From Gammaproteobacteria bacterium (GTDB lineage: Bacteria > Pseudomonadota > Gammaproteobacteria > Eutrophobiales > Eutrophobiaceae), in assembly GCA_965221335.1 (NCBI GenBank), contig CBDCSC010000001.1, positions 288,519-352,518 on the forward strand: a stretch of 64,000 bases of DNA. Direction: 5' to 3'. Below are positions 2,219 through 60,037 of this stretch, one piece after another. Under the pieces are notes generated by a model that made no database searches, was not told the origin of the DNA, and saw only the letters and a program-made list of their open reading frames with translations. A program made the translations under genes and the position numbers. The stretch's first letter is position 1. Every line of letters begins with the position of its first letter.

Positions 2219-2247
2219 GACTTAATCTCAGAGGCTCCCTATTAAAG
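2219..2247. repeat. Family-A intergenic palindromic element, copy 1 (GGAACCTCTGActtaatcTCAGAGGCTCC)
   Basis: A 29-bp imperfect palindrome 1 nt upstream of the hpaG1 start. Related copies are at 42013, 48255, 49083 and 60009. Confidence 0.6.
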
Positions 2248-3009
2248 ATGAAAACCATCAGGGTTAACCATGATGGCGTGTTACAGACAGCCAAGGTCGA
2301 TGAGCAGGCGCTTATCCACTTGGATGGCAATACTGTAGGGCTGGGAGAAACCCGCTTGCGGCCCGTTACCGATCAGCCGGTGATCTGTGTCGCGCTGAAT
2401 TACGCCGAACATTATCAGCAGTTGGTGGATACGTTGAGCCATCCACCCTACAAGGAACCGCCGCGCCAACCCGTGTTTTTCATCAAGCCCCGGAATACGC
2501 TAGCGGGACACCTGGACCAGGTTGCGTGCCCGGACGGGGTGGATCGGATCAGTACCGGGGCAGGCCTGGCGTTCGTGATTGGCCAAAAGGCCGGCAGGGT
2601 CACGCGGCGGCAGGGGTTTGACTGTGTCGGCGGCTACACCATCTACAATGACTTCAGCCTGGGCGAGGACAGCTATTTCAGGCCGCCGGTAACCACCAAG
2701 TGTCTGGACGGGTACGGCCCTGTCGGCCCTTACATCATGGACCCGGAGGAAATTGCGGACCCCCATGACCTTGCAATATCGACCTACGTAAACAGAGAAC
2801 TGAAACAAACGGCCTCGACCAAGGACCTGAGGCTCAGCATCCCCGCGATTATCGAGAGCTTGACGGAGTTCATGACACTGCCCCCGGGTGCGGTGGTCGT
2901 CACCGGCTTCCCACCGGGCCGGGTAGCCGTGCGGCCGGGCGACGAAGTCAGGGTGGAGATAGCGCAGCTCGGATCATTGGTAAACCATGTAGTAAGGAGC
3001 AAGGATTGA
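2248..3009 (+). CDS. hpaG1: FAH-family protein, HpaG N-terminal-half homologue (OPET decarboxylase / HHDD isomerase)
   Basis: 253 aa with fumarylacetoacetate-hydrolase family features (VICVALNYAEH, CVGGYTIYNDFSL). Its position in the hpa cluster supports the call. Confidence 0.7.
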   Translation: MKTIRVNHDGVLQTAKVDEQALIHLDGNTVGLGETRLRPVTDQPVICVALNYAEHYQQLVDTLSHPPYKEPPRQPVFFIKPRNTLAGHLDQVACPDGVDRISTGAGLAFVIGQKAGRVTRRQGFDCVGGYTIYNDFSLGEDSYFRPPVTTKCLDGYGPVGPYIMDPEEIADPHDLAISTYVNRELKQTASTKDLRLSIPAIIESLTEFMTLPPGAVVVTGFPPGRVAVRPGDEVRVEIAQLGSLVNHVVRSKD

Positions 3010-3028
3010 TGTATGGAATAATTATCAG

Positions 3029-3796
3029 ATGAAATCAGCACGAGTAAAAATCAACGATAAGGTGCAACAGGTCATCGTCAACGACGATTACAGCGTCGTC
3101 GATAAGGATGGCAATACCTGGCAGGAGCATGAAGTCACCTGGTTACCGCCGCCGCACGGTACCGTGCTCGCACTGGGCCTGAATTACGTGGACCACGCGG
3201 CGGAACTTGCGTTCAAGGCGCCCGAGGAGCCGCTGTTGTTCCTGAAGACGCCCAATACATTTACCGGCCACAGGCAGCGCAGCTACCGTCCGGACCATGT
3301 CGAGTACATGCATTACGAGGCGGAACTGGTCGCGGTAATAGGAAAGACGGCCCGCAAGGTAAAACAGGACGAAGCCATGGATTACGTCGGTGGTTATACC
3401 CTGTGCAACGATTACGCGGTGCGGGATTACCTGGAAAATTACTACCGGCCCAACCTGCGGGTGAAATGCCGGGATTCACTCTCCCCGCTGGGGCCGTATA
3501 TCATCGACCGGGATGATATAGACGACCCCCATGACCTGAAGCTCAGCGCCCGCGTCAACGGTGAACTGCGCCAGGAAGGGACGACACGGGACATGGTATT
3601 CAATATCCCGTTCCTGATCGAATATATCTCGGCGTTCATGACCCTGCAGCCGGGCGACATGATATCGACCGGAACGCCGAAAGGGCTCTCGGACGTACAA
3701 CCGGGGGATGAGGTCGTAATAGAAGTTGAACAAGTGGGCTGTTTGATCAATTATGTGATCAGTGAGCAGGACTATTTCGGGGGGCAGACCGTATAA
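3029..3796 (+). CDS. hpaG2: FAH-family protein, HpaG C-terminal-half homologue
   Basis: 255 aa and paralogous to the preceding ORF (GLNYVDHAAE, YVGGYTLCNDYAVRD, FMTLQPGDMISTGTP). E. coli HpaG is a single two-domain protein; here it is two genes. Confidence 0.7.
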   Translation: MKSARVKINDKVQQVIVNDDYSVVDKDGNTWQEHEVTWLPPPHGTVLALGLNYVDHAAELAFKAPEEPLLFLKTPNTFTGHRQRSYRPDHVEYMHYEAELVAVIGKTARKVKQDEAMDYVGGYTLCNDYAVRDYLENYYRPNLRVKCRDSLSPLGPYIIDRDDIDDPHDLKLSARVNGELRQEGTTRDMVFNIPFLIEYISAFMTLQPGDMISTGTPKGLSDVQPGDEVVIEVEQVGCLINYVISEQDYFGGQTV

Positions 3797-3808
3797 CTGG
3801 AAGAAGCA

Positions 3809-5332
3809 ATGACCGGACAACTCCAAGAGAATCTGAAAAAGGCCGAAGGCTATCTGCAACGTTTCAGGGATAACGTCACTGCGCATCATATCAACGGGGA
3901 GAGTCATCCCGGCGTTTCCGACGACACCTTTGACAACCTGACGCCGACTGACAATACTTCGCTGGGCCTTGTTGCCGCAGGTTCAGCACAGGATATCGAC
4001 CGCGCCTGCCGGGCCGCACAGGAGGCCTTTCCCGCCTGGTCAGCCAGCCCCGGGAAGGAACGCAAGCAAATCCTCCACCGTTTTGCTGACCTGGTCGAGC
4101 AAATGGCCGAAGAAATCGCGCTGGTCGAGAGTATGGACTGTGGCCAACCGATCCGCTTCATGCGCGCGGCCGCGGCGCGCGGCGCCGAGAACTTCCGTTT
4201 CTTTGCTGATAAGGCCCCGGAGGCCGGCAACGGCTTGTCATTGCATCAGCAGCAGCACCTGAACTATACGAAACGCACGGCCATCGGCCCGGTAGGTGTG
4301 ATCACGCCCTGGAACACGCCGTTCATGCTGTCTACCTGGAAGATTGCGCCGGCCCTGGCAGCCGGTTGCACGGTGGTGCACAAACCGGCGGAATTCAGTC
4401 CCCTGTCGGCCATGCTGCTGGCAGAGATAAGCAAGCAAGCGGGCCTGCCCGACGGTGTCTGGAACACCGTGAATGGCTTCGGAGAAAGCGCCGGCAAGGC
4501 ATTGACTGAGCATCCCGCGATCAAGGCCATCGGCTTCGTCGGCGAAACAGTGACCGGAACCCACATCATGCGCCAGGCATCTGCCACGCTGAAACGAATT
4601 CATGTGGAACTGGGCGGGAAGAACCCTGTTATCGTTTTTGATGATGCCGATTTCGAGCGCGCCCTGGACGCGGTCGTGTTTATGATCTACAGCCTGAACG
4701 GGCAACGCTGTACTTCGAGCAGCCGCCTGCTGGTACAGGACGGGATCGCCGGCAGGTTCCTCGACGCGCTGGAACAACGGGTCAATAACATCAGGGTGGG
4801 GCATCCGCTGGACCCCGCCACGGAACTGGGACCGCTGATCCATCCCAGCCACCTGGACAAGGTAATGGGTTACGTGGATGCGGCGCGGGATGAAAACGCG
4901 ATCATTGCCGCAGGAGGCATGCGGGTGACTGACCTGGGACCCGGCAATTACCTCAGACCCACCCTGTTCCGCAACGCCGCGAACAATATGAAGATTGCGC
5001 GCGAAGAGATCTTCGGGCCAGTGCTGACTGCGATCCGCTTTACCGATGAAGCGGAAGCCGTGACCCTGGCTAATGATACGTCCTATGGCCTGGCGGGATA
5101 CGTCTGGACCGGAGACTCCGGACGCGGCATCCGCATGGCAGAGGCGCTGGAAGCCGGCATGGTATGGGTCAACTCCGAGAACAACCGTAACCTGCCGTCG
5201 CCCTTCGGCGGCATGAAGCAGAGCGGCATAGGCCGCGACGGCGGCGACTACAGCTTCGAATTTTACATGGAAACCAAGAACATATGCATTGCTCACGGTA
5301 CGCATAAAGTGCCTGTGCTGGGAATGCGATGA
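3809..5332 (+). CDS. hpaE: NAD-dependent aldehyde dehydrogenase (5-carboxymethyl-2-hydroxymuconate semialdehyde dehydrogenase)
   Basis: 507 aa. ALDH motifs are present (ELGGKNP, catalytic Cys in GQRCTSSSR, EEIFGPV) and the gene lies in hpa operon context. Confidence 0.8.
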   Translation: MTGQLQENLKKAEGYLQRFRDNVTAHHINGESHPGVSDDTFDNLTPTDNTSLGLVAAGSAQDIDRACRAAQEAFPAWSASPGKERKQILHRFADLVEQMAEEIALVESMDCGQPIRFMRAAAARGAENFRFFADKAPEAGNGLSLHQQQHLNYTKRTAIGPVGVITPWNTPFMLSTWKIAPALAAGCTVVHKPAEFSPLSAMLLAEISKQAGLPDGVWNTVNGFGESAGKALTEHPAIKAIGFVGETVTGTHIMRQASATLKRIHVELGGKNPVIVFDDADFERALDAVVFMIYSLNGQRCTSSSRLLVQDGIAGRFLDALEQRVNNIRVGHPLDPATELGPLIHPSHLDKVMGYVDAARDENAIIAAGGMRVTDLGPGNYLRPTLFRNAANNMKIAREEIFGPVLTAIRFTDEAEAVTLANDTSYGLAGYVWTGDSGRGIRMAEALEAGMVWVNSENNRNLPSPFGGMKQSGIGRDGGDYSFEFYMETKNICIAHGTHKVPVLGMR

Positions 5333-5374
5333 AACAAGCCTGCTTTTGTGTTGATACATATCTGAGAGAAAAAA

Positions 5375-6223
5375 ATGGGTGAGATCGTCCTGGCCGCGAA
5401 GATAACGCATGTGCCATCCATGTACCTGTCGGAACTCCCCGGCCCCCACCAGGGTTGCCGCAAGGATGCCATCGAAGGCCACCGCGAACTCGGCCGCCGT
5501 GCCCGCGCCCGCGGCGCGGATACCGCGCTGGTGTTTGACGTGCACTGGCTGGTGAACAGCGGTTACCACATCAACAGCGGCAATCATTTCAAGGGCGTCT
5601 ACACCAGCCACGAACTCCCCCATTTCATCAAGGACATGTCCTATGAGTATGACGGCAATCCGGTCTTGGGTGACCTGGTTGCCGAATGCGCGAACGCCCG
5701 CGGGATAAACACCCGGTCGCACCATGTCGACAGCCTGACCCTTGAATACGGCACCCTGGTGCCAATGCGCTACATGAACCAGGATCGCCACTTCAAGGTG
5801 GTGTCGGTGGCGGCCTGGTGTGCCTGGCATGATTTGAATGATTCCCGAATCTTCGGCGAAGCGGTCAGGGAAGCCATAGAAAAAAGTGACAACAAGGTCA
5901 TGGTGCTGGCCAGTGGCTCACTGTCGCACCGTTTCAACGACAACTCCAATGCCGGCGATAAAATCTTCCAGATCAGCGATGAGTTTTACCAGCAGATGGA
6001 CCTGCGCGTGGTGGACTTGTGGAAGCGCGGCGATTTCAAGACCTTCACGGAGATGTTCCACGAATACGCCTACCGCTGCCACGGAGAGGGCTGGATGCAC
6101 GACACCGCGATGTTGCTGGGCATGCTGGGCTGGGACGCCTACGACCGGCCGGTGGAGATTATCAGTGATTATTTTCCCAGTTCCGGCACCGGCCAGATCA
6201 ACGCGGAATTTCCGGTGGGCTGA
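5375..6223 (+). CDS. hpaD: 3,4-dihydroxyphenylacetate 2,3-dioxygenase (class III extradiol, LigB family)
   Basis: 282 aa, very similar along its length to recalled E. coli HpaD (AAKITHVPSMYLSELPG, FDVHWLVNSGYHIN, LASGSLSHRF, YGEGWMHDTAMLLGMLGWD). Confidence 0.85.
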   Translation: MGEIVLAAKITHVPSMYLSELPGPHQGCRKDAIEGHRELGRRARARGADTALVFDVHWLVNSGYHINSGNHFKGVYTSHELPHFIKDMSYEYDGNPVLGDLVAECANARGINTRSHHVDSLTLEYGTLVPMRYMNQDRHFKVVSVAAWCAWHDLNDSRIFGEAVREAIEKSDNKVMVLASGSLSHRFNDNSNAGDKIFQISDEFYQQMDLRVVDLWKRGDFKTFTEMFHEYAYRCHGEGWMHDTAMLLGMLGWDAYDRPVEIISDYFPSSGTGQINAEFPVG

Positions 6224-6634: not shown

Positions 6635-7369
6635 ATGTCCCTGTTTGAACCGTTCGCGATCCTGATCATCCTGGGTTCATTTTTTTCATCGTTTATCAGC
6701 GCAGCCTTTGCGGTGGGCGGTGGTTTCATCATGCTTGCCATTGTCTCCAGCGTGCTGCCGATCACCGCGGCAGTGCCGCTGCACAGTTGCATGATGCTGG
6801 GATTGTCTCTGGGCAGGTCCTGGTATTTCCGCAAAGACATATGCCAGCGCATCGTCTGGCCGTTCCTGCTTGGGGCCTTAATTGGCGTCGCTGTCGGGGG
6901 CAGGCTGTATTTTGACCTGTCGGAATTTTTGCTCAGCCTGGTCATCGGCCTGTTGATTCTTGGCGCGGTGTGGATGCCACAACAGGTAGGATGGGGCATG
7001 CGGTTTCCGGTGCCGTTTTTCTGGGTCGGCATCGCACACGCATTCGTGTCCACGCTGTTTTCGTTCGGCGGCCTGTTTCAGCCGCTGATGATGCGCGCGG
7101 CGTTGTCGAAATTGCAGATCGTCGGCACATTGGCGGCAGGGCTGACGTTCATGAACATACTCAAGATCTGCGCATACAGTTACTACGGCTTTGATTACAG
7201 TCCGTATTTCATGGTCGTCGTGGCCGCCATTCTGGCCGCCGTCCCTGGCGCGTACCTGGGAAAAAAGCTATTGCACCGGATCCCAGAAGACCGGTTCAGG
7301 CTCATATTCAGCCTCATCATGACCTGTTTTGCGCTGAGATTGCTCTACCGCGCATGGATTCTTGTTTAG
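6635..7369 (+). CDS. TSUP-family (TauE/SafE-like) membrane permease
   Basis: 244 aa, highly hydrophobic with multiple predicted TM helices and two internal repeats typical of 4-toluene sulfonate uptake permease proteins. It is the last gene of the hpa cluster. Confidence 0.55.
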   Translation: MSLFEPFAILIILGSFFSSFISAAFAVGGGFIMLAIVSSVLPITAAVPLHSCMMLGLSLGRSWYFRKDICQRIVWPFLLGALIGVAVGGRLYFDLSEFLLSLVIGLLILGAVWMPQQVGWGMRFPVPFFWVGIAHAFVSTLFSFGGLFQPLMMRAALSKLQIVGTLAAGLTFMNILKICAYSYYGFDYSPYFMVVVAAILAAVPGAYLGKKLLHRIPEDRFRLIFSLIMTCFALRLLYRAWILV

Positions 7370-7639
7370 TCCGCATGCCTCAACCCGGACATATTGTTTT
7401 CTAGGATTGTAACTCATTGTTTTATATTAGAATAATTGTTAAACTAGATTGAGCGTAAGCATATAGGAAGCGGATTCAAACAATGCTGTGCGCACTTGGA
7501 CGCGCTAACGGCTGGAAGCATACTCGAATTATTCGTGTGTAGTAGTAGCGTACCAAGTGAGAAAAACAGGTAGGAATGCTCAGCATCCGGACGCTTCGCC
7601 ACGTCAACGCCGATAACACACCTCAACGTATCCAACTTT

Positions 7640-8110
7640 AGGGCTTCACTCCAATTGACACTCCACTGCCTCAGTGCTCGTAGAGCGCGGTGAAGGCGTG
7701 CCGTTGAGGCCGAGTCTACGGGCACTGAGGCCACCTCGAACTGTGGCGCGATGCTACTCGCGGAGCCCGACCGCCGGGTTGATGCCTCATCCTGAGCCAA
7801 GGGGACCTCAACAACCACGGCCGGCTGCAGCTGGACCCCGCGCTGTAGGCGGCTGCAATGCGGGACGGGGTGGTGGCCAGCCCGTCGACGCTGTGCCGGT
7901 TGAAGAGCAAGTCCACGGTTGTGGAGGCGCTGGTGCTGCAGGGAGCTGTTCGATCGGTTCGTGAAGGTCCATACCGTGCCGCCGGTGCCCAGACAAAAGC
8001 ATGAGGGTTGGGAGCGGTGCGCCAGCAGACCGTGTCGGGTCACCGAACACGATAGGCGAGGAACCCAATACGGGGAGATTGACCCAGAGCAGTTAAACCG
8101 AATGTGAACT
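7640..8110 (+). pseudogene. degraded transposase-like remnant (IS4/IS5-type N-terminal region); no intact ORF
   Basis: The ~900-bp stretch between the TSUP gene and the CBASS genes has only short, mutually overlapping ORFs. One frame reads ...LQLDPAL*AAAMRDGVVASPSTLCRLKSKSTVVEALVLQGAVRSVREGP..., which resembles the (A/S)xPSTLxRF region near the N-terminus of IS4/IS5-group transposases and is broken by stop codons. The match is recalled from memory. Confidence 0.3.
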
Positions 8111-8283
8111 CTTCGCGAGACATCATGCACCTAGTTTCCGTAGGGCTTGAAATGAACGGGACAAGTCCCCATTTACTCAAGGAGTAATCAACAGACACGG
8201 GGTAGCTCTATGCTCAGAAAACGCGTGACCGAAAACGGCAAGCTGGAGGGCCCCATTTGGAAATAACCTAGATTAAAGCAGAG

Positions 8284-9150
8284 ATGGGAATCCCGGAGCA
8301 ACAACTTCAAACGTGGTCGCACTTGGGCGCGCAACAGAGCTCCCAGGCCACATATGCCTCGGTTAACAATGCCCTGCAGAACTACGACTGGCCAGTCGAG
8401 ATGGGCAAGCCTGAAGTTTACCTACAAGGCTCTTACCCGAACCACACCAACATCTACGGCGATAGCGACGTAGACGTCGTCGCTGAGACCTCAAGCGTTT
8501 TCTATCACAACGTGCCGGATGATCAGCGCAAACAATTCGGGTTGCCAGAACGCGGTACTGGAGCATATGGATGGCGAGAGTACAAGGATGAAGTGCTCGC
8601 TGCTCTATGTCAATACTACGGACACAACGTCGTCACCCCTCACAACAAGTGCATCAAGATTACTGGTGACAACAATCGCTTGAATGCTGATGTCGTTCCA
8701 TGCGTCCAGTATCGCAAGTACTACACATATAGATCCTTCGCAAAAGGCGTAACGTTCTGGACACGGGATGACAACAATCAAGTGGTCAATTTCCCCAAAA
8801 TCCACCTGTCGAAGGGCGCAGAGAAGAACTCAAGTTGCGACCAGCTCTACAAGCCCAACATCCGCGTCATAAAGAACGCTCGGAACCGTGCCAAGAACGA
8901 TTTCCCGTCTTACTTCCTCGAATGTCTGCTTTACAACGTGCCGAACCAGATATTTACTATCAGCTTCTCCGATACATTCTTCGAGGTGCTGACGTACCTA
9001 AACAACGCAAAAAATGACGGCTCAATGAGCGACTGGTACTGCCAGAATCGCCAGCAGAAGCTATTTGGGCATCGTAAACATCAGATCTCTATCGATGATG
9101 CTTACAAGCTGATTGCTGACCTGATCGACCTTTGGAACGATTGGGAATGA
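8284..9150 (+). CDS. cGAS/DncV-like nucleotidyltransferase (CD-NTase, SMODS) of a CBASS system
   Basis: 288 aa. It has the GS-x12-DxD nucleotidyltransferase motif (QGSYPNHTNIYGDSDVDVV) and a downstream hDhVP third-Asp motif (NADVVPCV). It overlaps the patatin effector gene by 19 nt. Confidence 0.7.
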   Translation: MGIPEQQLQTWSHLGAQQSSQATYASVNNALQNYDWPVEMGKPEVYLQGSYPNHTNIYGDSDVDVVAETSSVFYHNVPDDQRKQFGLPERGTGAYGWREYKDEVLAALCQYYGHNVVTPHNKCIKITGDNNRLNADVVPCVQYRKYYTYRSFAKGVTFWTRDDNNQVVNFPKIHLSKGAEKNSSCDQLYKPNIRVIKNARNRAKNDFPSYFLECLLYNVPNQIFTISFSDTFFEVLTYLNNAKNDGSMSDWYCQNRQQKLFGHRKHQISIDDAYKLIADLIDLWNDWE

Positions 9151-10064
9151 GTAGGCCGCACTTCGTCTTATCTCTTGACGGAGGAGGTTCTCTTGGTGTT
9201 TATACGCTCGGTGTACTCGTCGAAGTAGAACGTATGCTCGACCGCCCCCTTCACGAAGTATTCGAACTCATTTATGGTACGAGCACTGGTGCAATCATCG
9301 CGTCCATGATTGCGCTAGGCGAGGACGTCGAGACTACCATCCAGAATCGCTATTTCGAGATCATTCCTGATGTGATGGGTAAATCTTTCGCTTGGAGTAG
9401 GAGCCGTGCGCTACATCGCCACGCTTCGGAGATATACCAAGGCAAGAAGTTCGATGCGTTCCTTACCAACGTCGGGATCGTTGCGACCCACGTTGAATAC
9501 AACCGGCCGATGGTATTCAAACGAACAGTCAGTCAGGCGCACGGTCGCACGTCGAGCTTCTCACCTGGGTTCGGTTGCACGATCGCTGATGCAGTCATAG
9601 CGTCCTCGGCTGCCTACCCAATCTTTTCAAAGAAGCGTATAGATACGGTAAATAGTGGTGTCCGGACCGTTGTTGACGGTGGGTATTGCGGCAACAATCC
9701 CGCGTTATTCGCCCTAACTGATGCGCTTGGGCCGCTTGGATTCTCTCCGGGTGATGTGCGGCTTCTTAGTATCGGTACAGGGCAGTTCCCTGAGCGCTTT
9801 CGCCTCCTTACACGGGCGCTGACGCTGTTTGCCCCGACGATAATGACGCTTCTTAAGACTAGTTCCAACACCGTTGAAGTTCTAGAACAACTCTTGTTCA
9901 AAGATGTCCGCACTCTACGGATCAATGATGGGCAGACGGGCAGTAGATACAAAACTGACTTAATTGAGAGTGACGTAGCGCTACTGAAACAGATCTTTGA
10001 CCTAGGTCGGGAATCGTTTGCCGTACACGAGAGCGATTTGCGCAAGTTCTTTGATATTTCCTAG
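9132..10064 (+). CDS. capV: patatin-like phospholipase, CapV-type CBASS effector
   Basis: 310 aa. It has the GGGxxG oxyanion motif (LDGGGSLG), the GxSxG nucleophile elbow (GTSTG) and a DGG catalytic Asp motif (VVDGGYCGNNP). Confidence 0.75.
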   Translation: MERLGMSRPHFVLSLDGGGSLGVYTLGVLVEVERMLDRPLHEVFELIYGTSTGAIIASMIALGEDVETTIQNRYFEIIPDVMGKSFAWSRSRALHRHASEIYQGKKFDAFLTNVGIVATHVEYNRPMVFKRTVSQAHGRTSSFSPGFGCTIADAVIASSAAYPIFSKKRIDTVNSGVRTVVDGGYCGNNPALFALTDALGPLGFSPGDVRLLSIGTGQFPERFRLLTRALTLFAPTIMTLLKTSSNTVEVLEQLLFKDVRTLRINDGQTGSRYKTDLIESDVALLKQIFDLGRESFAVHESDLRKFFDIS

Positions 10065-10367
10065 CACATGTCGAAGCAATCATGAGCAACTGCTATCGAG
10101 CCATGCGCCGTCTGTTCTTGGCGGATCTGAACCAATCATATAACGCTCACGTAGTCCGTGTAGGAAGGGACCAGAGTTAGTCAATGCGTAGGCAAATGGA
10201 TCCCAGCAGTTCGGGTGCGTGTTACACGCCAATTCGGCCGCTGATTCCACGGCAAACCGGCCACCCATCCCACGGCAAGCCGGCCGTTCTATGTCGAGAA
10301 TGCTCAAGAGGGATGGAGCAGCAGTGGGTTGCCAGGCTGCAGGCAAGCATGTAGCTCGTCCTCCATT

Positions 10368-10679
10368 TCAGGGTGTGACATTGTGTCCCTCGGCGCACTC
10401 CCGGCGCGGCTTCTCTTTCACGCACCGCCAGATCATCTCGCTGTCGATCCAGATACACTTGGTACATGTGGTATCGACGGCAATGAAATCGGATTCTCTC
10501 CGGTCCACTGGATTCGGCAATGTAGTCGGCATGCTGCCTTCGGTCATTTTCTCGATTCCTTTGTCAATTCTCGAAACATATCCGTGGGCATGATGCCCCT
10601 GCCAAAATGAGTCACGCCAGAACACGAAAATGGTTTTCGTTACTCTATGGTATCCGGGCACCCATCTTGGGAGTGCCAC
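10368..10679 (-). CDS. hypothetical small Cys-containing protein downstream of the OLD-like ATPase
   Basis: 103-aa ORF overlapping the 3' end of the ATPase gene by 40 nt (10640-10679; the two are in different frames, so this may be chance rather than operon structure). It contains CxxC-x10-C-x8-C. I recognise no family, and several other ORFs overlap it. Confidence 0.2.
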   Translation of the reverse strand: MALPRWVPGYHRVTKTIFVFWRDSFWQGHHAHGYVSRIDKGIEKMTEGSMPTTLPNPVDRRESDFIAVDTTCTKCIWIDSEMIWRCVKEKPRRECAEGHNVTP

Positions 10680-12109
10680 AAGCTATTGATGACCTCGTCT
10701 CCTAAGAATTCTGCCAATTGGCCAGTTGGTCTTTGTCGGCCAATTGTCTGAGCAGTTCTGATTGTCCAGTGCACGCTCTTTGGATCCAAAATAGAGTTTA
10801 GTTCACCTATTAGCTCCTTGATGTCCACAATTTGTCGATCCCAGTCCGGAGCCTTCTTCAGCTTTTGTTCCTTATTTCCATATTTGCTAGCATCCTTGAC
10901 AATCTTGGCGGAAGCATCCGCCCAATTAGTCCCCATGGCTATCAAGACCTCATCGGTCAGGTACAGGTTCTCTGTCTCGTGACACGCCAACTGAATGAAC
11001 CGAATGTGGTCTTGCGGGCACTGCGGTGAAGGCATTGGCTTCCCCTTGTCGGCGTCGATCAATGCAAAACCCGACAACTCAGCACCATCCTCTCGCAGAG
11101 CCGCAAACATCTGTTCTAAAGACCGTTGATATCGTTTTATCTCGTTACCGTTGGACGGGAGGACTGCAAACGACACAATATGATGTCTGGGTATCTGACT
11201 CCAAATTCTATAGTCGTCATCACCTTCGACCAGAAGCAATGGCACACCGAATAGAGGTCCCATTAGAGCGTGTCCGCCCAAGACTGCTGAGAGTTCTTTC
11301 GTTACAGCTGTAAAAGGCTGTGCTGCGAAATCCGACTTTGTACGATCAAGATAGAGAACACTTGTGTCGCTGTCCCCGAATTGGCCTAGTGCAGCCATGA
11401 ATGTTGTGCTGTGCGTAGCTACGAGAATTTGGAGACGATATTGTCGTGCCGCCTGAACCAGGAAGTCGGAGAAGCGTACCTGTAGGTCAGGGTGGATATG
11501 GGCGTCAGGTTCGTCAATTAGAATGAGACGTTTGTCTCTTTCGGCAATTTCCCATATCGCCCCCATTGTCAAAACGTCTAGACCAATCGTGAGTAGCTGA
11601 GCTTCACCGCTACTCAACTCATCAATAGATCCAACTTGGCTTTGGTCAACAGACCTCATCAATTTGTATGGGGGGTTTGCGACGCCATCCAAGGCTAACT
11701 CAAAGTCTGGAATTAACTGCCCCATCAATTTCTCTAGGTCTTGCGGGTTGCCCGGAAGTTTGTCGGCCCGAATGTTTCCGCGCGCTGTGAAATATGCTTG
11801 AACTCGCGACACGATATGTTGCCGATACTCGTTTAGGTAGTTCTTCTGGCTAACTTTGCGCCGTTGTAGTGCGCTGAGTTGAGTGCGCAAGTAGTTTGGC
11901 TCGAAATCAAGAGTTCCCGTTCTCTCGGGAACCACATAGTGGATGCTATCACTGTCTTTATCACGAAGTGCGCGCAACATTAGACTTTTCCCCGAGCCAT
12001 TTTTCCCGAAGACGACGGTAATCGTATTTAAGTTCTTCAACATCCAGGGCTTACCGCCTAATGTACCTGGCTGGTCGATTGAAACGTTCTGAAAATATGG
12101 ACTTGTCAT
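10640..12109 (-). CDS. OLD-family ATP-dependent nuclease (ABC-type ATPase with C-terminal TOPRIM-like domain)
   Basis: 489 aa. It has Walker A (GKNGSGKS), an ABC signature-like motif (LSSGEAQLL), Walker B (LILIDEPDAHIHP) and an H-loop (VATHS). The C-terminal region has a TOPRIM-like Glu (LLLVEGDDDYRIW) followed ~60 aa later by DxD (FALIDADKG). Confidence 0.6.
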   Translation of the reverse strand: MTSPYFQNVSIDQPGTLGGKPWMLKNLNTITVVFGKNGSGKSLMLRALRDKDSDSIHYVVPERTGTLDFEPNYLRTQLSALQRRKVSQKNYLNEYRQHIVSRVQAYFTARGNIRADKLPGNPQDLEKLMGQLIPDFELALDGVANPPYKLMRSVDQSQVGSIDELSSGEAQLLTIGLDVLTMGAIWEIAERDKRLILIDEPDAHIHPDLQVRFSDFLVQAARQYRLQILVATHSTTFMAALGQFGDSDTSVLYLDRTKSDFAAQPFTAVTKELSAVLGGHALMGPLFGVPLLLVEGDDDYRIWSQIPRHHIVSFAVLPSNGNEIKRYQRSLEQMFAALREDGAELSGFALIDADKGKPMPSPQCPQDHIRFIQLACHETENLYLTDEVLIAMGTNWADASAKIVKDASKYGNKEQKLKKAPDWDRQIVDIKELIGELNSILDPKSVHWTIRTAQTIGRQRPTGQLAEFLGDEVINSLWHSQDGCPDTIE

Positions 12110-12274
12110 GCGCGAATTCCAGCGATCTGCGCAGAGCTTTCAACAAGGCACTAGTGCACTGATCGCGTTGATTTGATGATTAAAATGTCGCCCGAAATCA
12201 CTACTGTCTGGTCAATAGTTGAGTTAATTCAATTGCGTAGGATTTACATGAACATCACGAGTGTAATTAAATTT

Positions 12275-12900
12275 TGTCATTTTGCACCGTAATAGAGCCG
12301 GCCATTTTCACTTTAATGGAGCCACTTTAAGGCGCTGATTTTCGAGTTCAGACACGGGTATTATTTCTCTGTTTCGGCCTGCTTTGCAAGCGGTTTATCG
12401 ATGGGCCTCGGTGAGCGGTAACTGTTCCCATCCAAGACCACCCGGTAGGCGTTGTGGCGTAACCGGTCAAGGGTGGCGGCGCCAAGCAACCGGTTCGGGA
12501 AGGCATCGCCCCATTCGCCGAAGTCCAGGTTGCTGGTGATGACGGTAGCCGCCCGCTCATAGCGCTCTGCGACCAGGTCATGGAAGTCTTCATCCTGGGG
12601 CGGTCGCAGGGGTTTGAGGCCGAAGTCATCAATAATCAACACGGGCGTTTTGGCCAGGCTCTGGAACTGTCGCTCATAGGAGTCGGTGGCTCGGGCCGCA
12701 TGCAGCGTGCCCAGCAACCGGGATTGCGTCATAAACATCACATCGTGGCCCTGTCGCACGGCAGCATGACCGATGGCTTGGGCGATATGGCTCTTGCCGG
12801 TGCCACAGGGGCCGGCAATCAGGACGGCCACGCGCTCTTCGATGAAGCGACCGGTGACCAACTCATAGGGCAGCGCTGCGTTGATGTTGGGGTTGAAATC
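12275..12900 (-). mobile_element. istB: IS21-family remnant: terminal inverted repeat plus the 3' portion of istB
   Basis: TGTCATTTTGCACCG begins at 12275 and is followed by direct sub-repeats (GAGCCGGCCATTTTCACTTTAATGGAGCCACTTTAAGG), as in IS21-type multi-repeat ends. The ORF segment from about 12361 to 12900 encodes an IstB-like C-terminal ~175 aa (VLIAGPCGTGKSH Walker A, LIIDDFG Walker B). The IstB N-terminus and all of istA are missing. Confidence 0.55.
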
Positions 12901-13791
12901 AACGTCCGCGCTCGAGGCCTGAATGGACTCCCAGAGCAGGTGTGCGTAGCGCGCGGTCGAGTCGACTTTCCGGTGCCCTAGCAGTTTGCCGATCATCGAC
13001 AGGCCCTCGCCAATCGCGATCGCGTAAGAGGCGTAGGCGTGCCGCAGGTCGTGCAACCGCACATCGTCGAGGCCGGCGCGTTCCCGGATCCGGTCCCATA
13101 AAGTGCTGACGTTCACCTGGCGAGTGCTCTTCTTCCTGCCGGGAAACACCCACGGATTGTCGGTTGCCCTCAGAAGATCGGCCAGCACGTCCGCGACGGC
13201 CGGAGGAAGCGGTACGACGCAGGGACCCGTCTTGCTGTCGCGCAGCCGCATTTTGAACCGGCAGATCAGCTTGCATGGGTTTCGCCCCGGTGGACGCATC
13301 TGCCAGAGTTCCGCGAGGTCGAACATCTTCACCAGGATGTTCACGCAACTGTTGGTCGTGGTGGGCACCCGGCGCAACTTGTACTGGAACTCGAAGATGT
13401 CGTTGCGTTCCACCCCGGCCACCTTGAGTTACCCGAGGCGCGGCACGATGTGGTTCCGCAGCATCAGCCAGTAGGTATTGACCGTACCCGGCTTGCAGTG
13501 CGCCGCGACGTGCTCGCGCATGTAGCATCCGGCGAGATCCGAAACGGTCGGATCGGGCGCGGGCGCAATCTCGCCATGGTGGCCCACGGTCACGCGCTTC
13601 GACGTGCCGTTAGCACGCGTCTGAATGACGTACACTTTGCGTCCCGATGGATAGACGCTCACGCCGAAGCCCGGCAACTCGCGGTCCCAGAACACCGCGT
13701 CCTTGCCGTCGACCGCCAGCCGGTCCACGATTCGCTTGGAGAGGGTGAGGTACTGGCGTTGGGGCATGTCGTCGTTCGTCGGCAGGACCAT
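12901..13791 (-). pseudogene. int: P4-type tyrosine integrase, inactivated by an in-frame TAA at 13429-13431 and truncated or fused at the 3' end with the istB fragment
   Basis: The 13429-13791 ORF encodes an N-terminal arm/DUF4102-like domain (LTLSKRIVDRLAVDGKDAVFWDRELPGFGVSV). It continues in the SAME frame after a single TAA into the catalytic region (HDLRHAYASYAIAIGEGLSMIGKLLGHRKVDSTARYAHL), which then runs directly into IstB-like sequence. Confidence 0.6.
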
Positions 13792-13988
13792 TCCAGCCAG
13801 TCCCGACGGGACGTACTTACGTAAGCATACAGAACGCGACTGACTTGAAATCTGAGGGTATTACAGCGTATCGACAGTGTAGATGCAAGGCATACGGCGA
13901 CGGAGATGAAATCAATTTATAGAATATTTACAATGCTTTATGCAAACTCTGCGCACGAGAGCGCACTCGAGTCGGAGAGGTAGAAATA

Positions 13989-14691
13989 TCAAACTCGGTT
14001 AACCCGCAAATCGGACAGATTCCCGGTTGGGAACGGACCAACCCGTCCGTCCACCAGGTTGAGTATATTGTCCGACAATGACTGCGCCCGCAATCGGTCG
14101 TGGGCGCTGAAAATAATAGTTTTGGTCCTGGCATCCCGTTGTTCAGCAATCCAGGTCTCGATTTCAATGACTGTGACCTCATCCAGGTAAGTGAATGGTT
14201 CATCCATGATGACCACCTCGGGTTGTGGAGCCAGGGCCCGGGCCAACGCCACTTTTTGGATTTCACCGCCCGACAGCTTGCCGGCATCCCGAGCCAAAAG
14301 GCCTGTCAGTCCCAGTTCTCCAGCGACGGCATCCACAGCAACGTCGATCGCGCGTCGTGTTGCGCCCCTTAACTTCAGCCCCAGGCCGATATTGTCCCGG
14401 ACGGACATTTTCATCAGGTAGGGTTTCTGCTGCACATACCCCACCTGGCGGCGCAGGCGCGTGCCTAGCGTTGCTGACGCCGGCTTGCCGCGGAACAATA
14501 TCGTGCCCGTGTCCGGCTTTCTCAGGAAAGCCAGCATGTCAAACAGCGTGCTTTTCCCTGAACCGTTGGGCCCGATCACAGCGGTGACCCGGTTGTGGTC
14601 GATATGAAGTTCATCCAGGTCGAGCGCTTTCCTGCTGCCATAGGAAAATGTCAGCCCGGAGATTTGATACAGATGGTCCACCGGCGCGCTA
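13989..14691 (-). CDS. ABC transporter ATP-binding protein (tungstate/molybdate-type, TupC-like)
   Basis: Walker A GPNGSGKS, signature LSGGEIQKV, Walker B VVIMDEP and an H-loop (SAHD). The likely start is the GTG giving VDHLYQISGL, which would overlap the permease stop. The longer listed ORF extension overlaps the permease and is discounted. Confidence 0.6.
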
Positions 14692-16302: not shown

Positions 16303-16322
16303 TATTTCAGCAAGCTCTGAAC
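16303..16322. repeat. Family-B half-element (AAGCTCTGAACAAGTCCATA), lacking the inverted partner
   Basis: It shares 18/19 nt with the left half of the other family-B copies and sits 6 nt after the first hsp20 stop. Confidence 0.4.
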
Positions 16323-16364
16323 AAGTCCATAACTACGATCCAATATTTCAGTTAGGAGGATATC

Positions 16365-16763: not shown

Positions 16764-16781
16764 AAATAACCCACCCAACCG

Positions 16782-48254: not shown

Positions 48255-48290
48255 TCACAAGAACTCTGACTTAATCAAGAACTCCGACGA
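48255..48290. repeat. Family-A-related degenerate copy 3
   Basis: CAAGAACTCTGACTTAATCAAGAACTCCGAC. It shares CTCTGACTTAATC with family A but has direct rather than inverted arms. Confidence 0.35.
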
Positions 48291-49082: not shown

Positions 49083-49112
49083 GGAAACTCTGAGACTTAA
49101 TCAGAGAGTCCT
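49083..49112. repeat. Family-A palindromic element, copy 4
   Basis: GGAAACTCTGAGACTTAATCAGAGAGTCC, between prx and the PNPOx-like gene. Confidence 0.55.
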
Positions 49113-53884: not shown

Positions 53885-54170
53885 TGCTTTAGCCCGAAAA
53901 TCTCACCGATTGATGCGATGATCGCTGAGGATTTTTTGTGTTAGCGGGTGCTCGCGACCGAAAGCATAGTGGTTCTTCTGGTTGAGGGAGCATGTGCCCG
54001 CTAACGCAAAAAAGACCAGCGAGGGCGCATCAAGCGCAGTGTGTAATGGCAGCATACTCGACAGATTACCATAACTCATTGACAGCAAACATCTATCCGA
54101 TGCTGACAAGCGAATTGGTGAGATATTCGGGTTAGTACTCACCTTGCATCTTCACGCTCGCCGGCGGTGG

Positions 54171-54491
54171 TCATATCCGTGCGCTCCGACTGAGTGTCCG
54201 AAACGCAGCCCGTCCCTTGTAGGTAAGTTGATACTTCTGTAGCAGACTTCGCGGTTTGTCATGAAGGGTCATTTTCAAGAATCCTACATGCTGGAGTCGG
54301 TCAAGCCACTTTCTGAAGTTTCCTGTTCGAGTCGCAAAACCTGCGGCGGCCAGCAACACTTTACTCGGAACTGCGCCCTGGGCGCATGCTTGCAGGATTG
54401 TGAACTCTTTGAGTGATAATGCAGCATGGCCCCCTTCTTGGCCCCTCGCATGGCCCCCCACTTGGCCCCCCACTTGGCCCCCAACTTGCAT
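54171..54491 (-). pseudogene. fragment paralogous to the C-terminal wHTH region of the adjacent COG2865 regulator, fused to a (GGQV)n tandem repeat
   Basis: A 106-aa ORF. Residues MTLHDKPRSLLQKYQLTYKGRAAFRTL parallel MTIPDKPRSKKQKYRLTAKGKELQAHL at the C-terminus of the 54849-56315 protein. Its N-terminal GGQVGGQVGG is encoded by the dodecanucleotide tandem repeat at 54425-54490. Confidence 0.4.
54425..54490. repeat. tandem repeat of TTGGCCCC(C)CAC (about 4-5 units)
   Basis: ...cttggcccctcgcatggccccccacttggccccccacttggcccccaacttg. On the minus strand it translates to GGQVGGQVGGQVGG. Confidence 0.55.
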
Positions 54492-54848
54492 ATCTGCTTA
54501 TTGGGTAGTGGCGCCGTGGTCGGTTGTGCGGGCGGTGGTCAGGTAGTCTGCTAAAAACGGGATAGTCAACCAAAGACCATTACCGGTAGATTGCAACTCC
54601 CACTCCGGCGGCGTATTGACGGCTTCCGGTTTCAGATTTTCGTCAACCATAATATCGAGTAGCGATAGAGCTTTGTTCTACGTACCTCGGAAGACGAACA
54701 TTGAAAACAGTGTTTGCGATTTTAGGGGTTTGTGGTGCCATCCTCTCGATTCGCAGGTAGAAGCGTCGGAACTGCTTGATTTCTTACAGCGGGCTCGCAT
54801 GGCGATCTTCGGATATCAAGGTGGAAAAGACAACCCGTCGGGTCAGAC

Positions 54849-56315
54849 TTACCATTCGCCTTGCCTCAAATGCGCTTGTAATTCCTTTCCCTTAGCGGTC
54901 AGGCGGTACTTCTGCTTCTTGCTGCGGGGTTTGTCCGGGATGGTCATCTCGATAAGCCCATCAGTGATGGCAGGCCGCAGGTACTCATTGGCCAAGTGAT
55001 CACGATGCCGGAGTTCCAGCCGCTCAAGGATTTCGTCTCTTGTTTGCTCTCCCTCAAGGCAACGGACAAGTTTTTTGACCTGCCAGGGACATGTCCGGCT
55101 CATGTCCGGTTCATGCCCGGCACATGTCCGGTTCATGCCCGGTACTCGGGATATACTTGGTTCCAACTTTTCACGTACTTGCGGGTAGTCCTGATTAATA
55201 ACATGCTCGACTTGCCGCGTGAATGTGGTCGTAACCCAATCTTCGGAGATGTCGATTATCGGCTCTGTGACCCCGTAGTCGCGGCACAATTCTCGTATGC
55301 GACGAACGCCGCTGCCGATCTGTTCAACAAGCCCCATGCGGTAGAACATCCCGAACAGGAGCGGGTTTCGGGGGACGCTTTTCAACCCTAGGTATTCTTC
55401 ACGCATACCGGCCGGCAGGCCGCCAGGGGTGACAATTTCGACACGGTCGTGGAAAATATGTGCTTGGACGTTGGCGGTGGATCGATAGTCCCGGTGGGCG
55501 ATGGCGTTCACCAGCGCTTCCCGTAAGGCGTCTTCCGGTAGCTCGAGTCGTTCGTCTCTTCCGCGTGCGTGGGGAATCAGCGCGGTGTTCAGTTTGGCCT
55601 GCAAATAAGCGACGCAATCCTCGAAGATGGAATAGAGATCTCCTACAAAGTCCTTGCGATCGATGATGTAGGTGTTGGTAACGCCGCGAAATAATGCACA
55701 AGTCACCCCGGCTCGCAAGGTGTAACGTGTAATGTCGTCCGCCAGCAGCCAAGCTCCAGCGTGTGTCATGTGCCCGTCTTTGACCAGGTGCAGGTTTTCC
55801 AAGGTCGGAAGTGGTGCAAGGTTCGAAGGCAGCCGCGCTCGGTGGGCGAATCGTTGCCAACGCTCGTCCGTCAGGTCTCTTTCCAACTCGAACGCGGGGC
55901 AGGGCGTTTCATCGAATCGGATCAAGCCTTCCTTGAAGAAAAATTCGCGAATCTCTTCGCGCTTCATCTGTTGGCTGCTTGCGCCTTCGCGGATGAAGAA
56001 TTTGCCGCCGAACGAATAGGGTTTGCTGTGCTGGGCAGGCACTCGCACGCAGAGAGCTTCATCCACACTCTCGATTTCCACCGCAATGGGTGGATCAGCA
56101 TTTCGGGCAACGGATTGAACCTCGGACTTTAGCCGGTTGTGTCCGGCGATTCCGCACACCTCTCCATTGTCCGTTACTCCAAGCAGAATTACTCCGCCGG
56201 TTGCGTTAGCGAAGGCGCACAGCTCGCGTCCTAGTCTGCTTGTGCCGGACCGTTTGAATTCCGTAGTAAATCCTTCGCCAAGCGCGATAATATCCGCTAG
56301 CTCTTCCCGGTTCAT
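54849..56315 (-). CDS. COG2865-type regulator (AlbA_2/Schlafen-like DNA-binding domain plus HATPase_c_4-like domain plus C-terminal wHTH)
   Basis: 488 aa. The N-terminal AlbA_2-like region is ELADIIALGEGFTTEFKRS...ELCAFANATGGVILLGVTDNGEVCGI. The central region has ALREALVNAIAHRDY. Internal 20-nt tandem repeats lie at 55081-55145. Confidence 0.6.
   Translation of the reverse strand: MNREELADIIALGEGFTTEFKRSGTSRLGRELCAFANATGGVILLGVTDNGEVCGIAGHNRLKSEVQSVARNADPPIAVEIESVDEALCVRVPAQHSKPYSFGGKFFIREGASSQQMKREEIREFFFKEGLIRFDETPCPAFELERDLTDERWQRFAHRARLPSNLAPLPTLENLHLVKDGHMTHAGAWLLADDITRYTLRAGVTCALFRGVTNTYIIDRKDFVGDLYSIFEDCVAYLQAKLNTALIPHARGRDERLELPEDALREALVNAIAHRDYRSTANVQAHIFHDRVEIVTPGGLPAGMREEYLGLKSVPRNPLLFGMFYRMGLVEQIGSGVRRIRELCRDYGVTEPIIDISEDWVTTTFTRQVEHVINQDYPQVREKLEPSISRVPGMNRTCAGHEPDMSRTCPWQVKKLVRCLEGEQTRDEILERLELRHRDHLANEYLRPAITDGLIEMTIPDKPRSKKQKYRLTAKGKELQAHLRQGEW
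55081..55145. repeat. about three copies of a ~20-nt tandem repeat (CATGTCCGGYTCATGYCCGG) inside the COG2865 gene
   Basis: gacatgtccggctcatgtccggttcatgcccggcacatgtccggttcatgcccgg. It encodes PGMNRTCAGHEPDMSRTCPW on the minus strand. Confidence 0.5.
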
Positions 56316-56375
56316 AACGACAACCTCACCCGCTCATCGCAGCTTTGCCACAACGACGAATAGAGCTGCGACTTC

Positions 56376-58409: not shown

Positions 58410-58470
58410 TTTTATTATTGTCCCCTTTGGTAATTGTTATAAGATACGGGACAATTGGAGGTAAGGCAAA

Positions 58471-60009
58471 ATGAAATCAGCGCAATCCTTAGGTCTCGCA
58501 ATACTGGTTTGGCTCATTATTGCAGGAAACGGCAACCTATTCGCAGGTGAAATGGACGCCCGGCTGTATTTTCAGTCGGTGCGGCGCGACCCGGCGTTGC
58601 TGAGAAATTTCCTGTACGGGTTCCCGAAGGGAGGCGAACTGCACAATCACCTGGACGGCGCCATCTATGCGGAAAACTACATCCGCTGGGCAGCCGAGGA
58701 CGGCAAGTGCATTGACCTTCAAACCCACAGGATGACGTTACCGCCCTGTGACGCGGCAGCCGGACGGCCTGCGGTCAGTGAGATCAGCGATAACGCAGAT
58801 GTGGTAAACCGGATTATCGACGCGTTCTCGATACGCAACTATGAACGCCGTGAGGTATCCGGCCACAACCAGTTTTTTTCAACCTTTGAGCGCTTTGTCC
58901 CTGCGGGCTTCGGCCGCGAGGGGCATATGCTGGCTGAATCCAGCGCCCGGTCCGCGCGCCAGAATGTTATCTACCTGGAGCTGTTGCAGTCATGGGGCAT
59001 GGAAAAGGCCCGGCAACTGGGAGCAGATAGCGTGGAATTCGATCCCGGGCGACCCTTGCAGGAGCTGGCCCGTCACCCGGAGATCGAAAAACTGGCTGCA
59101 GAGACCATTACCAGGCTGGACGCGATTGAGCAGCAGTGGCGCACAGTCCTGGCCTGCGAGCAGGAACAAGCGGACCCCGGTTGTGACGTGACCGTCCGCT
59201 ACCTGGCCCAGGTGATCCGCACCTTTCCGCGCTCGCAAGTATTGGCGCAAACGCTACTCGCTTATCATCTCATCGAGAAGGATGCGCGCTACGTGGGACT
59301 GAATTTCGTGGCGCCGGAAGACGACCCCATCACCCTCAGAGACTACCGCTGGCAGATGGAAATGATCGGCGAACTGGCAGGTTATTTCCCCTCGGCAAAG
59401 AACGGCATCACGCTGCACGCCGGTGAACTCGACCTCGGGCTGGTCCCCCCCGAACACCTGGGCTGGCACATCCGTGCGGCGCTGGACCTTGCCGGCGCCC
59501 GGCGCATCGGTCACGGCACCGATATCTTCCACGACCCGCAGGCAACGCAACTCATGCAACGAATGGCCGCAGAAGGCATCCTGGTAGAGATCAACCTGAC
59601 CAGCAGCGAAGCCATCCTGGGCATAACCGATGAGCGGCATCCGATTCGGGCTTATCTCAAGTATAACGTGCCCGTTGCCCTGTCCACGGACGATGAAGGC
59701 GTCGCCCGCATCGACCTGACCCACGAATACCAGCGAGCGGTGGAAACCTACAAACTCACTTATGACGATCTCAAGTACCTGTCCCGCAACGCGCTGGCCT
59801 ACAGCTTCTTGCCGGGAGAAAGCCTGCTGGAGTCGACCTATACGGGGAAAATCGTTGAGCAGTGCGATTACGGCATCGCCGGGGCCGATGAGAGCATACA
59901 GGAAGACAAGGTGCAGACCTGTCTTGAATTCATGTTCCGGAATGAAAAAGCCAAGTTACAGGCGGAACTGGAAAGGCGCTTCCGGGTTTTCGAAAGTGGC
60001 TATGATTAA
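58471..60009 (+). CDS. adenosine/AMP deaminase-family protein with signal peptide
   Basis: 512 aa. Metal-binding motifs ELHNHLDGA, HAGE and SLSTDDEG, plus an N-terminal signal peptide. Confidence 0.65.
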   Translation: MKSAQSLGLAILVWLIIAGNGNLFAGEMDARLYFQSVRRDPALLRNFLYGFPKGGELHNHLDGAIYAENYIRWAAEDGKCIDLQTHRMTLPPCDAAAGRPAVSEISDNADVVNRIIDAFSIRNYERREVSGHNQFFSTFERFVPAGFGREGHMLAESSARSARQNVIYLELLQSWGMEKARQLGADSVEFDPGRPLQELARHPEIEKLAAETITRLDAIEQQWRTVLACEQEQADPGCDVTVRYLAQVIRTFPRSQVLAQTLLAYHLIEKDARYVGLNFVAPEDDPITLRDYRWQMEMIGELAGYFPSAKNGITLHAGELDLGLVPPEHLGWHIRAALDLAGARRIGHGTDIFHDPQATQLMQRMAAEGILVEINLTSSEAILGITDERHPIRAYLKYNVPVALSTDDEGVARIDLTHEYQRAVETYKLTYDDLKYLSRNALAYSFLPGESLLESTYTGKIVEQCDYGIAGADESIQEDKVQTCLEFMFRNEKAKLQAELERRFRVFESGYD

Positions 60010-60037
60010 GGAAACTCTGATTAACTCTTAGAGCTTC
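60009..60037. repeat. Family-A palindromic element, copy 5
   Basis: GGAAACTCTGATTAACTCTTAGAGCTTCC, beginning within the last codon/stop codon of the deaminase gene (stop 60007-60009). Confidence 0.5.

Follow-up and report, generated by a model that had tools for sequence, protein, structure and literature searches.

Intergenic palindromes of an uncultured gammaproteobacterial genome: probable terminal hairpins and cut-down forms of an IS5-family MITE

Insertion at YTAR with duplication of 4 bp is the signature of IS5. Among miniature inverted-repeat transposable elements (MITEs), the Correia elements (CREE) of Neisseria are abundant and intergenic, measure ∼100–150 bp and form a long hairpin once transcribed; they can incidentally alter the expression of their neighbours, they duplicate TA, and they carry 26-bp repeats of unrelated sequence. 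We know of no tiny two-end derivative of a Correia element. IS5-family-derived MITEs are already known from Porphyromonas gingivalis (BrickBuilt, MITE293 and MITE700) and from Neisseria (ATR/ISNme1) (PMC4596501), and what is described here is a further such family in another clade. Its members were met as palindromes in a 64,000-nucleotide stretch of contig CBDCSC010000001.1 (positions 288,519 to 352,518; Gammaproteobacteria bacterium, assembly GCA_965221335.1), which we call the window and in which a sequence-only reading had listed five intergenic copies of ∼29 bp. Very probably, a non-autonomous MITE of the IS5 family is their source, each palindrome being either its terminal hairpin or a shortened, solo form of it.

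A 151–153 bp element with IS5-type ends

The pattern GGAAMYTCTGA-N7-TCAGAGRSTCC, run over the 64-kb window with up to three mismatches, matched at 2210–2238 (0 mismatches), 42013–42041 (1), 49083–49111 (0) and 60010–60038 (3). None of 100 dinucleotide-preserving shuffles contained any match (expected number 0), so that the palindrome family is genuine and well above what chance would give.

In BLAST comparisons and alignments, the palindrome extends leftwards into a non-coding repeat of 151–153 bp with conserved ends. The full element is laid out, from one TTAA flank to the other, as GGAAACTCTGAACAAGTCCATCCTGGACTTGTCAGAGTACGG - AAAACAAAAATGCGATTTTTGTTTT - CCTCACAATATCAATGCCTTACAGTCATTGATATTGA - CGATACATCCTTGTATCG - TA - GGAACCTCTGA(loop)TCAGAGGTTCC. 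Its terminal inverted repeats start with GGAAnCTCTGA and end with TCAGAGGTTCC, the left repeat being GGAA(A/G)CTCTGAACAAG and the right, read inward, GGAACCTCTGATTAAG; the 29-bp palindrome is the right-terminal hairpin. Copies fall into three size classes: full (151–153 bp), intermediate (75–87 bp) and solo (27–29 bp). The element folds as five back-to-back hairpins, four of which, tested jointly, gave z-scores of −9.1 and −7.6 for the two strands. The loop occurs as CTTAATC, GACTTAA or CTTAA, forms that lie a 2-nt GA/TC slip apart and all hold CTTAA the same way round, so that we dropped the idea of a loop inverting relative to the arms. By eye, CTTAA corresponds to the inner part of the terminal repeat, which would explain why it is conserved. 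A full copy used as blastn query matched nothing in a plasmid collection, and a literature search for the arm sequences returned unrelated primer matches only.

The family extends well beyond the window. Species-representative genomes were scanned with GGAANNTCTGA-N7-TCAGAGNNTCC, and at least 86 stretches matched, of which at least 30 came from a single 3.54-Mb metagenome-assembled genome (MAG), OZ244905.1, itself 97% identical to the window over 48.3–58.1 kb (comparison locus L081). Other matches came from further uncultured Gammaproteobacteria and from a few Xanthomonadales and other phyla, and some were scattered chance matches; isolate names suggest that some of the matching bins are of sponge origin. 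A coincidence limited to the window, the outcome against which the sequence-only reading had asked to be checked, is thereby set aside, and the search of relatives that it proposed finds the element to be common in OZ244905.1 and in other uncultured Gammaproteobacteria. A fuzzy scan of 30 8-kb blocks of OZ244905.1 plus the window found 50 intergenic copies at no more than two mismatches. Extrapolation, allowing for the choice of blocks, suggests a density of ∼1 copy per 9–16 kb, or a few hundred per genome.

The ends of the element point to IS5. Over 19 anchored positions, its left end, GGAAnCTCTGAACAAGTCC, agrees with the left inverted repeat (IRL) of E. coli IS5 at 15; its right end, read inward and compared by eye with the right inverted repeat (IRR) GGAAGGTGCGAATAAG, agrees at 11 of 16. 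The E. coli IS5 end used here is found at 100% identity in > 1500 E. coli genomes, adjoining an annotated IS5 transposase; the insertion reads GGAAGGTGCGAACAAGTCC...CGCACCTTCC between two CTAA flanks, with CCTTCC at the right end before CTAA. Viral contigs were also scanned for GGAANCTCTGAACAAGTCC, and two of them (L094 and L095, both IMG/VR contigs) carry a 1196-bp autonomous element that starts with exactly this sequence. Its start, GGAACCTCTGAACAAGTCC, equals the MITE left end save the variable fifth base, and its flanks in the two contigs are CTAG/CTAG and TTAG/TTAG. The element encodes a 321-aa protein that aligns with IS5 InsH over 312 aa at 57% identity, has the Pfam domains DDE_Tnp_1 and DUF772, and scores 349 bits against NCBIfam transpos_IS5_4 (cutoff 140). 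An 86-bp MITE in L093 shares these ends and is flanked by CTAA/CTAA.

Full copies are flanked mostly by TTAA/TTAA, and also by CTAA/CTAA, TTAT/TTAT (twice), TTAC/TTAC, TTAG/TTAG and CTAG/CTAG. The flanks of solo palindromes conform to YTAR in 31–32 of 58 cases on each side. Among the 45 solos with at least one non-palindromic 4-nt flank, direct repeats outnumber inverted ones by 10 to 2, and the direct pairs include the non-YTAR sequences CTCT/CTCT, CTGA/CTGA and TGAG/TGAG; the flanks are therefore duplications and not extensions of the palindrome. The family thus combines IS5-like ends and a 4-bp YTAR-like duplication with the small size, non-coding sequence and multiple copies of a MITE, and of the suggestions made from the window alone, that of a small MITE-like element is the one borne out. 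We presume that an IS5-type DDE transposase acting in trans would bind the ends, insert the element at YTAR, mostly TTAA, and duplicate 4 bp.

The same ends are also found around other interiors. MITEs with GGAAnnTCTGAACAAGTCC ... TCAGAGnnTCC termini lie at L016 5379–5530, L028 6506–6657, L006 865–1072, L004 3584–3702 and L082 1529–1703, in hosts that comprise Luteimonas, other Gammaproteobacteria and one MAG each of Acidobacteria and Bdellovibrionales. What these ends define is therefore a broad superfamily that crosses phyla.

A shape of this kind had also suggested repetitive extragenic palindromes (REPs) and the mosaics built from them (BIMEs), which are spread and maintained by a RAYT transposase of the IS200/IS605-like Y1 type. 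The outward likeness holds: the palindromes are imperfect, intergenic and 27–29 bp long, they number an inferred several hundred per genome, they form mosaics with hairpin modules, and one MAG that carries them (L056) has a RAYT-like gene. However, this gene is bracketed by a REP of its own, the unrelated ACTGGGACCGCGGACGTCTCGTCCGC, and lies 1.3 kb from the closest copy of the family. The family copies begin with GGAA and have no conserved GTAG head, they are flanked by 4-bp direct target duplications, which REPs do not make, and their termini match an IS5-family DDE element. We therefore regard the REP/BIME reading as largely refuted and give it only a very small probability; what survives of the proposed resemblance is the outward shape. 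The RAYT link had been sought by tblastn with E. coli RayT as query, and was abandoned because the single match in the sampled loci, in L056, is flanked by the other REP. That locus (L056 5121–6027, from a Bdellovibrionales MAG) resembles a classical REP–RAYT unit in its own right, with the gene at 5246–5821 between inverted ACTGGGACCGCGGACGTCTCGTCCGC copies.

Copies in the window and the history of their sites

An nhmmer profile of the family resolves the window into seven pieces, all on the + strand, five of which we label c1 to c5:

2143–2238, + strand: c1, a 5'-truncated MITE copy (profile positions 56–151; nhmmer E 3.9e-23; fold z −6.0)
16310–16329, + strand: fragment of the left terminal repeat, GCAAGCTCTGAACAAGTCCA, a remnant only (nhmmer E 0.14; profile positions 3–21)
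36412–36450, + strand: TTAG flank and left-end hairpin module alone, GGAAACTCTGAACAAGTCCATCCTGGACTTGTCAG (nhmmer E 1.6e-8; profile positions 1–35; fold z −3.2)
41955–42041, + strand: c2, an 87-bp internally deleted MITE (nhmmer E 7e-8 and 3e-9; fold z −5.2)
48255–48283, + strand: c3, a degenerate half copy, AACTCTGACTTAATC, with 5' arm and loop and without 3' arm
49083–49111, + strand: c4, a solo palindrome, GGAAACTCTGAGACTTAATCAGAGAGTCC, flanked by TTTG and TTAG
60010–60038, + strand: c5, a solo palindrome, GGAAACTCTGATTAACTCTTAGAGCTTCC

The palindromes of c1 and c2 are not the isolated ∼29-bp units that they had been taken for: BLAST, alignment and nhmmer all place them at the right ends of longer repeats. 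In c1, which matches copies in seven loci by BLAST, the right half of hairpin H0 is followed by H1 (2157–2189), H2 (2190–2207) and the terminal palindrome H3 (2210–2238, GGAACCTCTGACTTAATCTCAGAGGCTCC). It fills the space between the stop codon of open reading frame (ORF) 1341–2144 and the start of hpaG1 (2248), where relatives have the hpaI aldolase gene. In c2, profile positions 36–102 are missing, which leaves the left-end hairpin, H2 and H3 (42013–42041) between TCAA and TTAA flanks. This copy occupies a divergent gap between ORF 41153–41887 (−) and an amidase gene that starts at 42099 (+), and an 83-bp form similar to it is present in OZ244905.1 (L062). The solo c4 lies 13 nt past a peroxiredoxin stop codon and 23 nt before the start of a PNPOx-like gene. 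In c5 the left flank TTAA (60006–60009) includes the TAA stop codon of a deaminase gene (60007–60009).

Several details of the sequence-only reading change with these coordinates. Of its five copies, four are clear, whereas that at 48255 amounts to no more than a degenerate half. For the first copy the start is at 2210, 9 nt from the 2219 given for it, and the end 9 nt before the hpaG1 ATG, which this copy had been said to abut with 1 nt between; c5 starts directly after the deaminase stop codon and not inside it. The 7-nt loop CTTAATC, described as conserved, is found in c1 and c2, whereas c4 has GACTTAA and c5 TTAACTC. We doubt that c3 belongs to the family, since it shows no folding (z +0.65) and no significant match to the family profile (nhmmer E 2.9); its loop reads CCAAATC in a 97%-identical relative (L088), and it is at best a decayed remnant. 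Two fragments had been overlooked. That at 16310–16329 is flanked by two HSP20 genes and is also present in L089. In the other, the left-end hairpin proper occupies 36416–36450 and the TGA inside its terminal repeat is the stop codon of ORF 35092–36426 (AA_kinase and GNAT), so that the final codons and the stop of this ORF are supplied by the element. All seven pieces are truncated, internally deleted, solo or decayed, and are best seen as largely inert remnants.

The site of c1 differs between genomes. In L091, from another species, a gap of ∼25 nt precedes the hpaI gene and there is no copy; in L090, from the OZ244905.1 strain, a degenerate and oppositely oriented copy lies upstream of hpaI; in the window and in L089, which are 98.5% identical, the 5'-truncated copy takes the place of hpaI. 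The window and L089 thus lack the HpcH/HpaI aldolase gene that L090 and L091 have between hpaG1 and a 267-aa gene, and this 267-aa gene is itself only 77% identical between the window and L090. The 1.2-kb patch that contains c1 (1145–2352) is only 77% identical to L090, with flanks at 95–97%, which suggests a recombined patch in the homoprotocatechuate cluster. An exact look-up of four window proteins near c1 and c2 returned no record.

At the c5 site, L088 has the copy, L097 retains a right-arm remnant only, and L098, L099 and L100 have no copy after the same deaminase gene. In the other species without a copy at the sites of c1 and c5, the flanking sequence has diverged, and no exact empty site was recovered. 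We conclude that c1 and c5 are lineage-specific, whereas c4 is common to a more distant genome. The c5 site hosts other repeat families in L098–L100: after the deaminase gene, L099 3046–3180 contains about five tandem ∼25-nt repeats with CCTAATTTGGGACAACCATCAAT, followed by inverted partial copies, and in L098 and L100 motifs of the CCGCAGATGA type are repeated on either side of the next gene's upstream region. c3 lies 12 nt upstream of a breakpoint at ∼48295, where L081 (1–247) and L088 (9302–9886) carry an extra 584-bp HicB antitoxin segment that the window is without.

Other differences between the window and its relatives were also recorded. L089 lacks a 6.7-kb segment, 7365–14054, and its flanks are joined there with 33 nt between them. 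A low-GC (∼40%) island on the − strand, 16761–22465, is absent from the 98–99%-identical contig L089 and from L020; it encodes a C-5 cytosine DNA methylase (18953–19993), a HATPase_c_3/Hypoth_Ymh protein (17308–18963) and a 782-aa HATPase-like protein (19990–22338), and is probably a strain-specific restriction or defence island. No MITE was seen at the borders 7365/14054 and 16761/22465. Relative to OZ244905.1 (L081) and L088, the window has an insertion at 54243–56367 with a gene (54849–56315, −) for a 488-aa SLFN/AlbA_2 - HATPase_c_4 - Fic-like_C protein; a Fic-like_C fragment lies nearby at 54171–54491. A second, unrelated MITE-like repeat of ∼240 bp occupies 53891–54131, with terminal inverted repeats CCCGAAAATCTCACCGATT... 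and ...AATTGGTGAGATATTCGGG and TTAG/TTAG flanks. Copies of it that are 90–96% identical occur in the OZ244905.1 blocks L047 (twice), L060 and L053.

Placement of the copies and the regulatory readings

All copies of the 50-copy set are intergenic, and gene contexts were assigned with a crude self-trained ORF caller. By this measure 13 copies are co-directional with their flanking genes and five are opposed, while divergent gaps contain 12 and convergent gaps 10, proportions that are close to random. In OZ244905.1 there are 22 copies on the + strand and 23 on the −, without any replichore pattern; the uniform + orientation in the window (seven of seven) is therefore not a property of the family, and a replication-strand bias was dropped on the same figures. 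Distances to the downstream start codon range from 9 to ∼400 nt. The consistent position just upstream of starts, to which the sequence-only reading had drawn attention, dissolves in this larger sample, in which both orientations and all classes of gap are represented. A different regularity was found at stop codons: nine of the 50 copies abut one, compared with 2.6 expected from uniform placement within their own gaps (P = 0.0015). We attribute this to the target, as YTAR contains TAA or TAG and insertion there would frequently leave a copy on or beside a stop codon.

A palindrome with 11-bp half-sites might be an operator for a dimeric transcription factor, whose regulon would be formed by the downstream genes. 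All window copies are on the + strand with a + strand gene downstream, and in an ∼80%-identical genome c4 again precedes the same PNPOx-like gene. Against this stand a density of ∼1 copy per 9–16 kb, 10 copies in convergent gaps and nine at stop codons; neither the orientation of the copies nor their distance from starts is fixed, and c1 and c5 are not kept at orthologous sites, which leaves c4 as the only positionally conserved copy. Moreover, the target duplications and the 153-bp parent element account for the sequence without any regulator. A regulator binding site, as had been proposed, is not supported by these observations, and we give it a minimal probability. A sigma-54 or sigma-E promoter in TGGAAC/GGAACTT...TCTGA was also rejected, because the spacings do not fit.

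The other proposal was an RNA-level translational element. In a wider form, the hairpin would be a cis-acting RNA structure selected for translation occlusion, 3'-end stabilization or termination, its transposon origin being secondary. The hairpins are stable (the c1 region has −32 kcal/mol and z −6, the full element z −9), the 3' arm of c1 contains the GAGG closest to the start of hpaG1, and there is a mild excess of co-orientation with flanking genes (13 versus 5). Covariation likewise maintains the stems, with compensatory changes at nine of 58 pairs among 16 copies from several genomes. These changes, however, are strictly Watson–Crick, G-U intermediates being very few, and the two strands fold equally well; the outcome of the proposed covariance and folding check, although positive, suits a DNA palindrome no less than an RNA. 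The 12 copies in divergent gaps are in promoter-only positions, and neither T-tracts nor terminator-like or promoter-like signals exceed shuffles in consensus scans. Rfam gave no match in the window in gathering mode, and a full copy reached at best 22.5 bits against a threshold of 42 in E-value mode; a tRNA search of the window found none. Given that the copies follow no positional logic, often touch stop codons and, in the case of c1 and c5, are missing from the corresponding sites of other species, a translational role is not supported, and selection for an RNA hairpin seems to us highly improbable.

We conclude that the family is ordinary selfish DNA with no dedicated regulatory signal. 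Any effects on the host would then be side effects, for example those of the stable hairpin that ends 9 nt ahead of the hpaG1 start and of the stop codon donated to ORF 35092–36426.

Several observations nevertheless weigh against an IS5-family origin. A tblastn search with InsH found no cognate transposase in the window or in ∼0.75 Mb of sampled clade loci. Among the best 120 homologues of the L094 transposase, the named closest relatives belong to Alcaligenaceae and not to the clade of the MITE, and no protein of the OZ244905.1 contig is included. The duplications of the window copies are imperfect (TTTG/TTAG, TCAA/TTAA and TTAA/CTCA). The near-identical genomes compared provide no clean pair of filled and empty sites, c4 and c5 are fixed among 97%-identical relatives, and c4 occupies the same site in a genome that is only ∼80% identical, which could reflect retention for function, a hot-spot or simple persistence. 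The crudeness of the ORF caller belongs here as well.

In annotation, the motifs of an IS5-family MITE call for masking as repeats, and should not be reported as operators, riboswitch-like leaders or terminators. The element can serve as a dense marker of transposon activity in an uncultured gammaproteobacterial clade that is partly sponge-associated. Local rearrangement is marked by it too, as at c1, where hpaI was lost inside a divergent patch, and it provides a clear example of a YTAR-targeting transposon that settles on stop codons and even donates them.

Solo palindromes and comparison with known elements

Solos are more numerous than full copies. When oriented by CTTAA, they have a 5' arm of the left-repeat type, GGAA[A/G/T]C, and in ∼13 cases a 3' arm with GGTTCC; the converse is practically absent. 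The full element carries two 11-bp direct repeats, namely its left terminal repeat and the 5' arm of its terminal hairpin, and a deletion between these would yield a 27–29 bp solo that retains the original duplication. We hold such a deletion to be about evenly balanced with other origins, one of which would be mobilization of the palindrome alone. The c4 site fits reduction in situ: the solo is what the window, L081 and L088 have there, while a full 153-bp copy with an orthologous right flank occurs in OZ252091.1 (L024), although the loop forms differ and independent insertion may apply. The commonest 5' arm of solos is GGAAGC, whereas most full copies in the same genome have GGAAAC; together with the excess of solos, this is compatible with separate amplification without being proof of it.

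In a bolder version, the 27–29 bp palindromes, as two IS5-type ends 5–7 nt apart, would themselves be mobilized by the transposase, YTAR targeting would seed stop-adjacent hairpins, and the host would co-opt them. We think this unlikely. If it were true, solos would be the smallest transposable units described in bacteria, and hairpins next to stop codons would be distributed genome-wide, maybe co-opted by the host for mRNA 3'-end stability or translational coupling. Mildly interesting in any case are how far the 27–29 bp two-end form predominates and how systematically copies touch stop codons; the mini-palindrome is a small curiosity for transposon mechanics, and current understanding of MITEs is unchanged.

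Among described systems, REP/BIME elements are similar in being short, imperfect intergenic palindromes of high copy number that form mosaics with other modules; the present family differs in having target duplications and DDE-type termini and in lacking both a GTAG head and an observed RAYT association. Correia elements are likewise abundant intergenic MITEs, but differ in their TA duplication and their unrelated 26-bp repeats.

E. coli IS5 shares with the MITE the terminal start GGAA....GAACAAGTCC, the match at 15 of 19 positions and the 4-bp YTAR duplication, CTAA in the copy examined. Even the difference between its IRL and IRR (GAACAAG versus GAATAAG) is mirrored by the left and right MITE ends (GAACAAG versus GATTAAG). 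Unlike IS5, which measures 1.2 kb, the MITE has no transposase gene, is 151–153 bp or 27–29 bp long, and has as its interior a hairpin stack unrelated to IS5. With the 1196-bp insertion sequence (IS) the similarity covers the first 19 nt save the fifth base and continues to about nt 38 (..TGTCAGA.TA); that element differs in being autonomous, with its 321-aa transposase, and in having its named relatives in a different bacterial family (Achromobacter, Castellaniella and Bordetella), and it was not found in the sampled loci of the MITE clade.

The IS5-derived MITEs described previously are also non-coding and multi-copy, with terminal repeats identical or near-identical to those of IS5-family ISs (PMC4596501). 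They have ends of the GAGACCTTTGCA type, live in other hosts and are reported at 10–20 copies per genome, whereas the family described here is distinguished by a much higher copy density and by the predominance of its 27–29 bp two-end palindrome.

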